A DNA stretch of 64,000 nt from positions 11,178 through 75,177 of the forward strand of contig LCRX01000004.1 in assembly GCA_001004885.1 (NCBI GenBank), read 5' to 3'. Each line of letters opens with the position of its first letter. Positions within the stretch are counted from its first letter, which is position 1. The stretch comes from Candidatus Magasanikbacteria bacterium GW2011_GWA2_56_11. GTDB taxonomy: Bacteria; Patescibacteriota; Patescibacteriia; Magasanikbacterales; UBA922. Of this stretch, positions 8,676 to 54,482 are shown one piece after another. The notes beneath the pieces were generated by a model, which saw nothing but the letters and a program-made list of their open reading frames with translations, was not told the origin of the DNA and searched no databases. A program made the position numbers and the translations under genes.

Positions 8676-8681
8676 ACAACG

Positions 8682-8836
8682 AACTGGTAGCGAGTTATCA
8701 GCAATTCTATCCTAAGTCGAGCCGAAACAGAGACTGATTTTTACGGCACCAATGTCTGAGCCTGTAAGAGCGAGTTTTGGTGCCGTGAAAATCAGTCTCT
8801 GTTTGAGGCGAAAAGGGAGAAACTCGCTGTGAGTTC
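8682..8836 (-). repeat. Copy B (reverse orientation) of the MITE/REP-like element, between livJ and livH
   Basis: The reverse complement aligns full-length to copies C and E. It is co-oriented with the minus-strand liv operon. Confidence 0.85.
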
Positions 8837-17067: not shown

Positions 17068-17409
17068 TCAGGCGGCGCGTGGCATCACTTCCTCGGAGCA
17101 TCGCCCGCAGCGCCAGACCGGCCCGCTGCGGATGGCCGTGGTGGGCCCGCATTTCGGGCAGTGCCCCTGGCCGCTGCCGCTCTCGTTGTCGATGACGGGC
17201 GGCTGTACCTGCCGCGTGAGGGGCGGGGCGCAGTTGAGGCAGACGCCGTTGGCCATGGTCGTCTGCCGCCGGCACAGGTCGCACTCCTGCATCTCGATGG
17301 TGACGTTTAAGCCTTCATGGCTCATCACCTTAAAGCCGGCGAGGGCAAGCTCGAGGCAGAACTGCTCCACTATGTGGGCGACTTCCGGGTTTAGGACAGC
17401 ATCGGACAT
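17068..17409 (-). CDS. Hypothetical zinc-ribbon protein (CDLC...CLNC...CPKC...CGRC)
   Basis: Strong AAGGAGG RBS (rc of 17411-17423). Start at Met8 of the track ORF. Confidence 0.5.
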   Translation of the reverse strand: MSDAVLNPEVAHIVEQFCLELALAGFKVMSHEGLNVTIEMQECDLCRRQTTMANGVCLNCAPPLTRQVQPPVIDNESGSGQGHCPKCGPTTAIRSGPVWRCGRCSEEVMPRAA

Positions 17410-17590
17410 CGGGACCTCCTTGTTACGCACACACTAGCGGTTTTGGGAGTTTTTTGCAAGTGGAGGCGGCCAGTTAAGGTGTATGGGTCTACGTAGAAAT
17501 CAGCCGGGCGCAGAAGCTACCTTATTTTTGGCCGTCGAAAGTGGTACAGTACCAGAGGGCAAAATGTTTGCCCTCTAATTGTACTTTAAT

Positions 17591-18619: not shown

Positions 18620-19384
18620 ATGCTCACCCCGCACGAGGCCACCAACCGGCGTATCTTCAGCCGCGTAGCGAAGCGCTATGATTCCCCGCTTGCCCGCCGG
18701 GTATATTTCGGGCGGCTCTACCGCCATCTTTTGAAAATACTTGAACGCGAGGCCGGCACTACTCTCGGCGGCGCACGCGTACTGGATGTTGCCTGCGGCA
18801 CTGGCGAGATAATAAACAACCTGGCCCGGCGCTTTTCGGGTTCTGCCTACACCGGCCTCGATATTACCCCGGCGATGCTCGAGCGGGCAAAAAAGAAAAC
18901 CGCCGGCCTGGCCAACGTATCTTTTGTCGAGGCAACCGTGGATGAATTGCCGTTTTTGGACGGTGCGTTTGACTTGGTAATCTGTTCTGAAGCCTTTCAT
19001 CACTTCTCCGATCCAGGCCGGGCTCTAAGCGAAATGCGCCGCGTACTCTCGCTCCGGGGCAGACTGTTATTGGTTGATCCGGCGTTCAACCGGCCGTGGA
19101 TAAGGCGCCTGGCCAATAAATTTTTACCGCGCCTGGAGCACGCCCACGCCGTCTACAGTACAGGGGAATTAGCCGGGTTGATGGAAAATTACGGATTTAC
19201 GGTCGAGTTTCGTTCGACATACGCCCTGAATAGCTTTATACTGGGGGCCAAAAAGAACTCACAGCGAGTTTCCCCCCTTTCGCCTCAAACAGAGACTGAT
19301 TTTCACGGCCCCAAAACTCGCTCTTACAGGCTCAGACATTGGTGCCGTAAAAATCAGTCTCTGTTTCGGCTCGACTTAGGATAG
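18620..19384 (+). CDS. Class I SAM-dependent methyltransferase (Methyltransf_11); last ~40 codons are read through repeat copy C
   Basis: SAM motif VLDVACGTGEII plus LPFLDGAFDLVICSEAFHHF. The C-terminal NSQRVSPLSPQTETDFHGPKTRSYRLRHWCRKNQ is encoded by the repeat. Confidence 0.75.
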   Translation: MLTPHEATNRRIFSRVAKRYDSPLARRVYFGRLYRHLLKILEREAGTTLGGARVLDVACGTGEIINNLARRFSGSAYTGLDITPAMLERAKKKTAGLANVSFVEATVDELPFLDGAFDLVICSEAFHHFSDPGRALSEMRRVLSLRGRLLLVDPAFNRPWIRRLANKFLPRLEHAHAVYSTGELAGLMENYGFTVEFRSTYALNSFILGAKKNSQRVSPLSPQTETDFHGPKTRSYRLRHWCRKNQSLFRLDLG

Positions 19385-19410
19385 AATTGCTAGTAACTCA
19401 CTACCAGTTC
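19255..19410 (+). repeat. Copy C of the MITE/REP-like element
   Basis: Full-length alignment to copies D, E and B. Confidence 0.85.
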
Positions 19411-26984: not shown

Positions 26985-27011
26985 TAATACTTAACGTCTG
27001 TCAAGTATCCT

Positions 27012-27245
27012 ATGGCCCTGGACATCAAGAAGGACAAAAAAAAAGAAAAGCGCTGCTATTTTTGTATCAACAACAAGAGCGTGATTGACTACAAAGAAGT
27101 GCAGACCTTGCGCCGTTTTGTTTCGTCCTACATGAAAATCGCCCCGCGCCGCCGGAGCGGCCTGTGCGCCTGGCATCAGCGCAAGGTATCGCGGGCGATT
27201 AAGCAGGCGCGGATAGCCGGATTGCTGTCGTTCGTTTCGAAGTAA
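27012..27245 (+). CDS. rpsR: 30S ribosomal protein S18
   Basis: CYFCINNKSVIDYKEVQTLRRFVSSYMKIAPRRRSGLCAWHQRKVSRAIKQARIAGLL. Confidence 0.9.
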   Translation: MALDIKKDKKKEKRCYFCINNKSVIDYKEVQTLRRFVSSYMKIAPRRRSGLCAWHQRKVSRAIKQARIAGLLSFVSK

Positions 27246-27265
27246 AAAACCCGCATAGGATACCA

Positions 27266-27296
27266 AAAACATCCCGACTCAATCGGGATGTTTTTC
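27266..27296 (+). terminator. Rho-independent terminator (AAAAACATCCCGA-ctcaa-TCGGGATGTTTTT-CTATTTTT)
   Basis: 13-bp stem with a T-run after rpsR. Confidence 0.65.
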
Positions 27297-27438
27297 TATT
27301 TTTATTTTTGGCGGCGCCGGGTTTACTTATCCACCTGGGATAGCTCAGCCGTATTGCGTTTTCGTGCGGGTATGTTAGCATTTAACCCAGGCAAGCCGGC
27401 TTCTGGCCGGTGGTGTTCAACTGCGATGGAGGTGTCCC

Positions 27439-27873
27439 ATGTATCGACGGGGTGTCCCGATCGCCGCGCTCGTCGCGGTGTGTCTCTTCATCTGGTACCC
27501 GATGGCGGCGTCCGCCCACACGGTGCTCGGTGGCGATGTCCACGATCACGGCATGCCGACCGACTTCCAGGCGACGAGCCTCGCCACGGCCGGGCACGAC
27601 GGTCCCGGCGCGGTGTTCGAGCAGACGGATCTCCTGCTGACGTTCCAGTCGGGGCACGACGGCGTCGGCATGTGCATGCGCGCGGCGAACCTCGACACCG
27701 GTGGCGCGAGCCTGGAGGCTCACAGCAAGATGACGGACGTTGCCTTTCCCGAGTCTGGCGGCAACCCGGACACGGTGGGCGAGGAGACCACCGCTCCCGG
27801 CGTCCCGGCCAGGACGGGCCGCAACCACTCGAGCGAGTCGTCCGGCCGGAGGGTGCACCGCGCCGTGCCCTAG
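27439..27873 (+). CDS. Secreted His-rich hypothetical protein encoded in a ~68% GC island (GC3 very high)
   Basis: GGAGGTG SD lies 5 nt upstream. Signal peptide MYRRGVPIAALVAVCLFIWYPMAASA. Codon usage is unlike its neighbours, and terminator-like structures flank the unit. Confidence 0.5.
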   Translation: MYRRGVPIAALVAVCLFIWYPMAASAHTVLGGDVHDHGMPTDFQATSLATAGHDGPGAVFEQTDLLLTFQSGHDGVGMCMRAANLDTGGASLEAHSKMTDVAFPESGGNPDTVGEETTAPGVPARTGRNHSSESSGRRVHRAVP

Positions 27874-28077
27874 GCCTAGGCGCGCTCCCGAGCGCGCCGC
27901 CACACTCTCCACTCTCGACCCCTCTACCATCCCTGCCAAGCTGGCTGCCTAGCAAAGCCACTCCGCATCACCCTGTCTCGCTAAACCGATTGACGCTACA
28001 GGGTGGAGGACCGGAGTGGTTTTTTGCGTTTATAATTCGGCCCCAATACTAATATATTTTGTGTTCCTATCGGACAA

Positions 28078-28107
28078 TTGTCCTCTGCCCGCCGGGCAGT
28101 GTATAAT
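28078..28107 (+). promoter_or_regulatory. Candidate promoter TTGTCC-18-TATAAT just upstream of the 28117 ATG (near-leaderless)
   Basis: TATAAT at 28102-28107, with the ATG 10 nt downstream. Confidence 0.35.
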
Positions 28108-28116
28108 ACCGCCGCT

Positions 28117-28590
28117 ATGTCTATATTCGAGCCAGAAAGGGAAGCCGGCCAGCGCTCGCGCGAGGCCGCGGAGATGGCCGCCGAGCAGCGCGAGTCCAAA
28201 GAGGGCGAGCCGGACGAGGAGTTGAAGGCCGCCGCGGCGATGGAGCGGGCGGATTATCTGGTGCGCGAGGTGAAAAGCAGCCAGACACAGATGCAAAATA
28301 TTATTCTGCACATGCAGCAGGTGCTCGCGGCCATCCGGGCGCTGCGCGACGAGCTGCAGCTCTCGCCCGAAGATGATCCGGCGTCGGTGTCCCAGGACCG
28401 GGCGCGGGTGGAAGCGCTCAAAAAGCGCATTGCCGCCTATACCGACGAACTGCTAAAAATGAAAGGGGAACTGATACGCGAACAGGCCGAGGTGCTGCGC
28501 GCCGGGGAGGGGCAGACAATGAGCGGCCAGATGTTAAAGCAGAAAGCAGAGGCCATGGTAGAGGAATTGTTGGCCGAAATCCAAAGTTAG
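28117..28590 (+). CDS. Coiled-coil hypothetical protein (first gene of the long plus-strand pilin cluster)
   Basis: Acidic, helical ORF. The track start at 28078 lies upstream of the candidate -10 element. Confidence 0.45.
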   Translation: MSIFEPEREAGQRSREAAEMAAEQRESKEGEPDEELKAAAAMERADYLVREVKSSQTQMQNIILHMQQVLAAIRALRDELQLSPEDDPASVSQDRARVEALKKRIAAYTDELLKMKGELIREQAEVLRAGEGQTMSGQMLKQKAEAMVEELLAEIQS

Positions 28591-28618
28591 ATAACTCAAA
28601 TTCAGCTTTAGGCCTGTC

Positions 28619-32463: not shown

Positions 32464-32524
32464 AAACCGGGATAAGAGCCGGGCTTTTTCCCGCCGGTGT
32501 TCTCTGGTATAATACTTTCAGCTA

Positions 32525-32680
32525 GAACTCACAGCGAGTTTCCCCCTTTTCGCCTCAAACATAGACTGATTTTCACGGCGCCAAAACTCGCTCTTGTGGG
32601 CTCAGACATTGGTGCCGCGAAAATCAGTCTCTGTTTCGGCTCGACTTAGGAGAGAATTGCTAACAACTCACTATCAGTTC
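32525..32680 (+). repeat. Copy E of the MITE/REP-like element (reference copy)
   Basis: GAACTCACAGCGAGTTT...CGCCTCAAACATAGACTGATTTTCACGGCGCCAA...TTGGTGCCGCGAAAATCAGTCTCTGTTTCGG...AACTCACTATCAGTTC. Confidence 0.85.
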
Positions 32681-52745: not shown

Positions 52746-52821
52746 TGGGGTGGCTAATGGGAATCGAACCCATGCTAAAGGTTCCACAAACCTCTGTGCT
52801 AACCATTACACCATAGCCACC
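52746..52821 (-). tRNA. tRNA-His (anticodon GTG) with genomically encoded G-1 and CCA
   Basis: The rc folds as G-1, acceptor GTGGCTA/TAGCCAC, D-arm GTGT..GCAC, anticodon stem GAGGT / loop TTGTGGA / ACCTT, T-arm ATGGG-TTCGATT-CCCAT, discriminator C, then CCA. Confidence 0.85.
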
Positions 52822-53138: not shown

Positions 53139-54482
53139 CTAGGCAGCCTTGGCCGGCTTGTCAGTAACGGCCCGGAGCTTGGGCTTCGGCTTGGCGTGCC
53201 AGATGCTCGAGGCGAACAGAAGGCCGAGGCCCGCGGCTGGCAAGAGGACCAGGGGCCAGTAGAACCAGTTGGCCGGATCCTTGGCGGCCTCCCCGGTGGG
53301 GACGATCCACCCGATCACGAGCGACTGCAACCCCGTGCCGAGGTAGACCATGCCGTCCACGATGCCGACCGCGGCGCCGGTGTTCTTGGCGCCGGCGAAG
53401 TCGGCCGTGGCCGTGCCCGAGAAGATCCCGTGCACGCCGATCACGCTCATCGAGATGGCCATGACGGCGATGCCGGCGAACCACCAGTTTAGGTCCAGGC
53501 TCAGGCCCATGACGGCGGTGGCCAAGAGCATGAGGCAGTAGAGAATGGTGGCCATGGGCGCGCGGCGCGACTGGAAGAAGCGGTCCGACATCCAGCCGGT
53601 GAAGATGCCGCCCAGGAGTCCGGCGATGAGGAGGGCGAGACCCCAGTTGTCGCTCACCCAGAACTCCTTCTTGAAGCCGACCTCCTTGGCAAACATCGGG
53701 TACCAGTGCATGACGCCGTTGCGGAGGATGCCGCTCATGAGCTCGACGACGCAGACGATCCGGAGCACTGGGTGCCTGATGATTTTACCGAAGATCTGCC
53801 GTGTCGTCTCTTTGTGGTCGCTTACTCCCAGGTGGTCCTCGCCGGTGTCAAAGTCGCGGAAGCCGGCCTCGCCTGGCGTGTTGCGCAGCCAAGCGAACAT
53901 GAGGAGCCAGAAGACGCCAAGCAGGATCGAGGGGATGAAGAAGATCATCCAGTCCTCGTTCCAGCCGCTTTGGCCGAGCCCGAAAGCCGTGCCGAAAGCG
54001 CTGGCCCAGAAGCCGAGGTCGGCCTTGGGCGTGGCCCGTGATGCTTCGACGATGGCGAAGCCCCAGTCGAAGGCGAAGTAGACGCCGAGAGCGATGAGGA
54101 CGCCGAAGATCGTCGAGAAGGTGCCGCGCTCGCTGACGTGGAACCAGGGCGCCTTGGTGGTGACGATCGCCACCGCGCCGAAGCTCTGGAAGTACATGTT
54201 GACGGCGTAGAGCACGAGGAACGTGCTGAACACGGACACGTTCCATTGCCAGTAGTTTATCCCGTAGAGGACGAGGCCCATGAGGAGATTGGCGCCGATG
54301 GCGCCAGCGACGCCGATGAGCATCGTGCGCCGCCCGCCCCAGCGGTCCGTGAGCGGGCCGTTGAGCAGGAAGGAGAGCCCGTAGACCCAGGCGCCGACAC
54401 CGAAGATCGTGCCGAACTGCGCCTTGGTCATGAGGCTGTCGCCGAGGGCGCCCTGAGCGACGGTGAGGTTGTAGCGCCCCAT
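53139..54482 (-). CDS. MFS organophosphate:phosphate antiporter (GlpT/UhpT family), very high GC3 (putatively horizontally acquired)
   Basis: Clear similarity to E. coli GlpT across the protein (GWMSDRFFQSRRAP vs GWMSDKVFRGNRGA; HWYPMFAKEVGFKK vs DWSPTYLKEVKH), with the MFS motif GPLTDRWGGRR. Confidence 0.75.
   Translation of the reverse strand: MGRYNLTVAQGALGDSLMTKAQFGTIFGVGAWVYGLSFLLNGPLTDRWGGRRTMLIGVAGAIGANLLMGLVLYGINYWQWNVSVFSTFLVLYAVNMYFQSFGAVAIVTTKAPWFHVSERGTFSTIFGVLIALGVYFAFDWGFAIVEASRATPKADLGFWASAFGTAFGLGQSGWNEDWMIFFIPSILLGVFWLLMFAWLRNTPGEAGFRDFDTGEDHLGVSDHKETTRQIFGKIIRHPVLRIVCVVELMSGILRNGVMHWYPMFAKEVGFKKEFWVSDNWGLALLIAGLLGGIFTGWMSDRFFQSRRAPMATILYCLMLLATAVMGLSLDLNWWFAGIAVMAISMSVIGVHGIFSGTATADFAGAKNTGAAVGIVDGMVYLGTGLQSLVIGWIVPTGEAAKDPANWFYWPLVLLPAAGLGLLFASSIWHAKPKPKLRAVTDKPAKAA

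Follow-up and report, generated by a model that had tools for sequence, protein, structure and literature searches.

Locus and gene content

This study concerns ORF A, a single open reading frame (ORF) in a 64-kb stretch of DNA, hereafter called the window, of contig LCRX01000004.1 from a Candidatus Magasanikbacteria genome (Candidate Phyla Radiation, CPR, or Patescibacteria) of the Rifle aquifer. It is the one ORF of the 871-bp interval that separates rpsR from the gene for a protein that we call p170 (Table 1), and NCBI already holds the product of ORF A as hypothetical protein UY92_C0004G0048, with no function assigned. The genes upstream are rpsF, ssb and rpsR (Pfam S6, SSB and S18), and downstream of p170 come p598, a 598-aa protein bearing a prepilin N-methylation motif, and then more pilin-like genes. 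An earlier note on this DNA had described the interval as an acquired, GC-rich single-gene cassette bracketed by terminators, carrying a canonical Shine-Dalgarno (SD) sequence and encoding a secreted, His-rich product that might bind metal. Here we ask how well this description holds, and where the gene may have come from.

The identical ORF A protein is encoded on nine contigs of public collections. Six of these contigs, from different samples and assemblers, were read and have zero mismatches to the window over 27000-28600, and five of the six (ENA k141, two ANAN16 scaffolds and two JGI assemblies) span both junctions. The sixth, L006 (SRR2177954, k127), is 543 bp long, corresponds to positions 27351-27893 of the window and ends near the edges of the GC-rich segment described below. 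Such ends may stem from lower coverage due to GC bias, or from branching of the assembly graph, which would point to heterogeneity of the population at this site.

Base composition and coding frame

The region 27300-28025 has 65.6% GC, and ORF A itself 70.3%. A maximum-likelihood fit with two change points delimits a GC island at 27445-27903, with 71.9% GC against 57.0% in its surroundings. The island has sharp edges and corresponds to ORF A plus the first hairpin behind it (27879-27898); on either side the composition is ordinary, at 51.5% GC for 27297-27426 and 58.4% for 27904-28028. We took 59 ORFs of the window as the native reference set (GC 57.1±3.1%; GC at third codon positions, GC3, 68.2±5.5%). 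Relative to these, ORF A has z scores of +4.2 for GC and +3.9 for GC3, making it the strongest compositional outlier of the 64 kb, and not one of 959 in-frame windows of 145 codons drawn from native genes matches it in GC or GC3. Its Karlin codon bias is 0.52, compared with 0.30-0.49 for all but one of the native genes shorter than 200 aa. The G/C-biased codons unlike those of the neighbours are thus borne out, and the proper computation that the earlier note had called for gives codon statistics that are not uniform.

The composition also bears on whether ORF A is a gene at all. GC at the three codon positions is 0.68, 0.54 and 0.90, and the three-base periodicity is strong (chi-square p 1.3e-10); the ORF A frame is a genuine coding frame of the high-GC type. 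The GC3 signal appears in one antisense frame as well, where 3 stops break it. Three overlapping ORFs, at 27288-28052(+), 27382-27939(-) and 27488-27961(-), lack the coding-type pattern of GC1>GC2<GC3 and were set aside as by-products of high GC, and a Pfam scan of the first two gave no match. A non-coding RNA was likewise rejected: Rfam, searched at the gathering threshold over the whole window and at E ≤ 1 over 27230-28130, returned only two tRNAs elsewhere and terminator-like noise. ARAGORN found no tRNA at the ORF A locus. Within the window the insert that carries ORF A is single-copy.

Translation signal and flanking hairpins

The SD sequence of ORF A, GGAGGTG, is present as described and is the only strong one among the ~55 genes of the window. 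To place it in context, we scored SD sequences as matches of a 4-mer or longer at -16 to -4, which random positions reach in 8% of cases, both in the window and in 80 Magasanikbacteria-type loci (the sister loci) found by scanning GTDB species genomes with the SSB protein. Among native ORFs, just 1 of 51 in the window and 22 of 670 (3.3%) across the sister loci have even a 4-mer, which is below chance; native genes of the Magasanikbacteria lineage avoid SD sequences. The rare SD-bearing ORFs in the sister loci have raised GC3 (Mann-Whitney p 1e-4). The anti-SD motif has been reported missing from the 16S rRNA in about half of Parcubacteria (PMC9297842). Neither the window nor any fetched sister locus contains a 16S rRNA gene. 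Many -10-like TATAAT elements lie 7-20 nt from start codons, for example at 28102-28107 before the ATG at 28117, and these distances suggest leaderless mRNAs or mRNAs with very short leaders. For p170, 9 nt separate the -10 element from the ATG, which implies a very short leader.

Folding energies confirm terminator structures on both sides of the gene. The upstream terminator has a hairpin of -17.4 kcal/mol (z -5.6); downstream, the GC hairpin has -20 kcal/mol (z -3.9) and lacks a T run, and the long hairpin has -36.3 kcal/mol (z -5.0). The 5' spacer folds no more stably than shuffled sequence (z -0.14).

Table 1. Features in and around the rpsR-p170 interval, in window coordinates
Feature	Position	Strand	Remarks
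rpsR (ribosomal protein S18)	27012..27245	+	Pfam Ribosomal_S18; closes the rpsF-ssb-rpsR operon; left native flank; kept in 80/80 sister loci
rpsF-ssb-rpsR intrinsic terminator	27265..27305 (hairpin 27265-27295)	+	13-bp perfect stem, 5-nt loop, T-rich tail
5' spacer	27297..27427	+	ordinary composition; no convincing sigma-70 promoter
Shine-Dalgarno GGAGGTG	27428..27434	+	canonical; 4 nt before ATG
ORF A	27439..27873	+	144 aa; GC 70.3%, GC3 89.7%; orphan gene
Predicted Sec signal peptide, aa 1-26	27439..27516	+	from hydropathy, AlphaFold2 helix and AxA rule
Mature part, 118 aa (predicted)	27517..27870	+	from composition, AlphaFold2 pLDDT ~30 and direct repeat
GC-only hairpin GGCGCGCT-CCCG-AGCGCGCC	27879..27898	+	directly 3' of the stop codon; no T run; end of the GC island
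C-rich, G-poor tract	27899..27951	+	C 26, G 7 among 53 nt
Long imperfect hairpin, then TTTTTT	27952..28027	+	intrinsic terminator of native (T-run) type; insulates the downstream operon
Promoter-like TTGTCC-18-TATAAT	28078..28107	+	serves the conserved downstream operon
p170, coiled-coil, 157 aa from ATG	28117..28590	+	heads the p170-p598-p206-p463 cluster; right native flank

Sister loci and the rpsR-p170 spacer

The gene order rpsF-ssb-rpsR-p170-p598-p206-p463-NTP-transferase is widely conserved in the sister loci. A homolog of ORF A, by contrast, was found by tblastn in none of the 80, so the vertical homolog at the same locus that could have spoken for native descent was looked for and did not appear. 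The gap between rpsR and the next gene is typically 45-300 bp and AT-rich, and the rpsR-p170 spacer has a median of ~120 bp in the 34 loci that have p170. In 7 of these 34 the spacer is 500 bp or longer, compared with 0-1 loci at six other junctions of the cluster; those six junctions lie inside operons, so the contrast mainly shows that an operon boundary tolerates insertions.

The seven sister inserts share no DNA or protein similarity with the insert of ORF A, and they are unrelated to one another save for non-coding matches in two pairs (L008/L015 and L041/L054). In one of them the gene, of native composition, is for a TrmB-like regulator; the others hold orphan-like ORFs. Most are GC-elevated relative to their own genomes, and 3 of the 5 GC-elevated ones are SD-led.

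The closest parallel is an ORF in the rpsR-p170 spacer of a Magasanikbacteria-like genome from Hong Kong activated sludge (L024:8064-9146(+), H6758_02845). As in ORF A, a canonical SD (here AGGAGGA), high GC3 (0.88 against ~0.4 in its native genes) and a secretion signal are combined with a C-rich tail and a GC hairpin at the 3' end, where GGCGCGTTCCC...ACGCGCC (GGCGCG.TCCC) resembles the window's GGCGCGCTCCCGAGCGCGCC. Unlike ORF A, with which it shares no sequence similarity, it encodes 360 aa with a lipobox and has a strong native-type promoter (11/12 matches) upstream. In a word-indexed search of 5.8 billion proteins, this ORF found only itself.

Further sister ORFs have GC3 values 0.3-0.56 above their genome medians: L085:2358-3464(-), L057:4347-4700(+), L059:10069-10629(-) and, at L009, 1916-2896(+) and 3310-4818(-). 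Several members of this set, taken together with the L024 ORF, have canonical SD sequences and lipoprotein-type or signal sequences. ORF A falls into a class of genes in this lineage that look foreign, and no locus-specific mechanism is indicated.

Two other observations concern the sister loci. Directly after the rpsR terminator, L027:7718-7990 and L049:7719-8105 hold a conserved, GC-elevated, ORF-like element (MGCFFVY...) with no Rfam match; these two genomes do not have the p170 cluster at that place. A group I intron (Rfam RF00028, 87.9 bits) was found beside a tRNA gene at L008:4233-4594.

Predicted product and homology searches

The N-terminus of ORF A reads MYRRG / VPIAALVAVCLFIWYPMAA / ASA, that is, a basic n-region, 19 hydrophobic residues and an AxA c-region, with hydropathy of 1.5-1.8 across residues 1-25. 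By the -3/-1 AxA rule alone, we placed a putative cleavage site at ASA|HT; predicted cleavage there would give a mature protein starting with HTVLGGDVHDHGMPTDF and hence with an N-terminal His. The h-region is long, and the segment may instead be an uncleaved membrane anchor. A single-sequence AlphaFold2 model of ORF A has a predicted local distance difference test (pLDDT) score of 45.6 and is confident only in a helix at residues 8-24. With this helix and the N-terminal features, the earlier description of the product as secreted is plausible, export itself being a matter of prediction.

In the same model the mature part is unstructured, with pLDDT ~30, and the fold itself is uninformative. 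These 118 aa are acidic (pI 5.3). Gly, Thr, Asp and His abound in them, Ile, Tyr and Trp are absent, and Lys occurs once; order-promoting residues make up 20%, compared with 36% in native proteins. Model and composition together suggest that the mature product is probably intrinsically disordered. Two GHDG[PV]G motifs occur in it, spaced 20 residues apart, and an HDHGM motif lies near the predicted N-terminal His. The His-rich character that had been proposed is real, if modest: 8 of 118 residues compared with 1.8% in native proteins, a 3.8-fold enrichment (binomial p 0.0013).

Searches for relatives of ORF A returned the protein itself and little else. A word-indexed search of 5.8e9 proteins gave self-matches only, as did phmmer run exhaustively over 1.84e9 cluster representatives. 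There was no match in Pfam (E ≤ 1) or NCBIfam (E ≤ 0.1), and the two matches among PDB sequences (E ≤ 10), to HIV gp120 at E ~1, are due to chance. No relative was found by tblastn against plasmids and phages or by pattern scans of metagenome and viral contigs.

Origin of ORF A

Altogether, we consider ORF A a gene of foreign origin, taken up at an operon boundary that is permissive to insertion, a reading to which we assign a probability of roughly 70%. The case for acquisition is built on deviant GC, GC3 and codon usage, on the SD sequence, on a GC hairpin without a T run and on the lack of a homolog at the locus or elsewhere in the searches above. These are also the grounds on which acquisition, as claimed in the earlier note, stands; the word cassette is to be taken loosely, as there is no attC core, integrase or transposase and neither an inverted repeat nor a significant target duplication. 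The donor would have been a GC-rich organism that uses SD sequences, and the captured piece would extend at least from the SD through the ORF to the GC hairpin (~27428-27903). It would have entered between the rpsF-ssb-rpsR terminator and the promoter of the conserved pilus-associated operon, by illegitimate recombination or environmental DNA uptake at a neutral site. The absence of mobility machinery suggests illegitimate integration, and a GC3 that has yet to move towards that of the host makes the transfer look recent. Several sister lineages would independently have acquired other, unrelated genes at the same spacer. If it is made, the 144-aa preprotein would be directed out of the cell, to its surface or into the medium. 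Within the foreign-gene reading, it is about equally likely that the exported protein has a function and that the gene is inert cargo of recent arrival.

Several observations weigh against capture. The main weakness is the failure to find a donor or homolog anywhere; for a transfer so recent that GC3 still stands at 0.90, this is odd. No integrase, transposase or recombinase lies within ±10 kb and no tRNA nearby, and the attC core GTTRRRY does not occur in 27251-28120. At the insert itself there is no inverted repeat and no significant target duplication; the only candidate duplication, 8 nt long (TTGCGTTT, at 27354 and 28024), is no more than chance would give. Across six inserts, moreover, insert GC tracks host GC, at +12 to +20 points, which random GC-rich donors would not readily explain. 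No close relative is available either: the closest p170 homolog among 5.8 billion proteins is 59% identical, which leaves no empty-site allele to define the ends of the insertion and no basis for dN/dS, and metagenome contigs scanned for exact matches to the 5' end of p170 gave none.

Other points tell against the expression of a captured gene, and at the same time favour the view that ORF A was dead on arrival, integrated by chance, without function in its host and intact only through recency. No recognisable promoter precedes it: the best sigma-70 candidate 5' of ORF A, TTGCGT-16-TAGCAT at 27354-27381, has 7/12 matches, and none with at least 9/12 was found upstream. A strong terminator sits just upstream, and the 5' leader is GC-rich, while host genes start short or leaderless and SD-free. 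The SD may be useless in this host, and the anti-SD motif may be absent in the group (PMC9297842); expression of ORF A is doubtful on all these counts, the missing promoter included. The product is an orphan protein with no predicted fold, and its composition has not drifted hostward. However, the fragment is not a random piece of a gene but one whole unit of SD, start, signal peptide, stop and hairpin; behind it comes a second terminator, this one with a T run; and it is fixed, being identical in every assembly of the population. The L024 insert, with its 11/12 native-type promoter, shows that some inserts at this place look domesticated. We regard death on arrival as a real possibility that falls short of being probable. 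A native origin of ORF A, as a lineage-specific gene inherited vertically or arisen de novo, with its GC raised by a local process such as GC-biased gene conversion at an operon boundary prone to recombination, or by amino-acid composition, seems highly improbable to us. The parallel rise of insert and host GC would suit it, as would the missing donor and the recurrent variability of the junction. Amino-acid content, however, cannot yield GC3 of 0.90 against 0.68, native genes avoid the canonical SD that ORF A carries, and its GC-only hairpin is unlike native terminators; the sharp island edges coincide with the gene, and all sister loci lack a homolog. Sharp edges could also arise if assembly or binning had joined a fragment of a GC-rich organism into a CPR contig, and L006 covers roughly the island; such a chimera is nonetheless most improbable, given that both junctions are base-for-base identical in five longer contigs from different samples and assemblers. 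We give as little credence to an integron-type or other site-specific mobile cassette, or to a structured non-coding RNA. A promoterless, SD-led single ORF followed by hairpins, in a spacer that is recurrently occupied in sister genomes, does recall a cassette, but there is no attC core or recombinase in the intervals searched, no array and no sequence shared among inserts, and an RNA is at odds with the strong coding periodicity and the lack of an Rfam match.

What would a captured ORF A mean more broadly? Taken alone, it is in kind an ordinary horizontally acquired orphan. It is also a clean case of foreign DNA in a reduced CPR genome, in which GC3, SD and terminator style mark the gene independently of one another, with a GC deviation that runs opposite to that of most acquired DNA. 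If the pattern of unrelated, often GC-elevated and SD-led inserts in a lineage that avoids SD sequences holds genome-wide, an SD could flag recent transfer at little cost in SD-free CPR lineages, and might give clues to donors or hosts. It is tempting to go further and treat ORF A as one instance of a recurrent Magasanikbacteria class of GC-elevated, SD-led orphans, mostly exported, at permissive operon boundaries, with the spacer between rpsR and the pilus operon as a notable example, but we think this rather unlikely. If true, these putative episymbionts may have taken such genes from a GC-richer host or neighbour, with DNA uptake through pili as one conceivable route. This would offer a handle on host identity from sequence, and would raise the question of how SD-free translation treats SD-led mRNAs.

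Other compositional outliers and repeats in the window

Besides ORF A, only one gene in the 64 kb reaches 68% GC over 435 bp. It encodes a major facilitator superfamily (MFS) transporter at 53139-54482(-), adjoining tRNA-His at 52746-52820(-), and has 65% GC and GC3 of 0.92, with no SD. The protein is of the organophosphate:phosphate antiporter type (GlpT/UhpC/PgtP-like), although its match to TIGR00881 (1e-34) is well below the curated cut-off. The gene is, beside ORF A, the other strong compositional outlier of the window, and it looks like a second, independent foreign acquisition.

The segment 17009-17437 also has 65% GC. Here a 142-aa plus-strand ORF with GC3 of 0.83 overlaps a more protein-like 120-aa minus-strand ORF (17068-17430) that holds CxxC...CxxC zinc-ribbon-like motifs, and the true gene is probably the one on the minus strand.

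A repeat of ~157 bp is present in three copies, 90-96% identical, at 8681-8836(-), 19254-19410(+) and 32524-32680(+). Each copy contains a long internal hairpin (AAACAGAGACTGATTTTCACGGC ... GCCGTAAAAATCAGTCTCTGTTT) and lies just upstream of a gene's 5' end or overlaps it. The repeat has no Rfam match, and could be an element like a miniature inverted-repeat transposable element (MITE) or a structured RNA.

Comparison with known systems

The predicted N-terminal His and the HDHGM motif bring to mind copper proteins such as CopC and YcnI. ORF A would share with CopC/PcoC (PF04234) and YcnI a signal peptide, an exposed His1 and enrichment in His. Unlike them, it has no predicted beta-sandwich, it shows neither sequence nor profile similarity to them in the searches above, and it is of low complexity, with no Ile, Tyr or Trp. 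A metal-binding or CopC-like role, as the earlier note had suggested, is speculative.

ORF A resembles an integron cassette in having one SD-led ORF, no promoter and a hairpin-forming 3' end, at a site that recurrently holds unrelated genes. In contrast to such cassettes, it has no attC (GTTRRRY, R'/L' boxes), and there is no intI, attI or array within ±10 kb; its hairpin is only 20 nt long.

The nearest comparison is with acquired ORFans and genomic islets. As a rule, ORFans and acquired DNA have a higher AT content than their host. ORF A differs from the usual ORFan islet in being 13 points GC-richer than its host, in carrying an SD that the host lineage does not use and in having no flanking tRNA, integrase or repeats. 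It is like them in being a short, homolog-free gene of deviant GC, GC3 and codon usage, located at an operon boundary and absent from relatives at the syntenic site.

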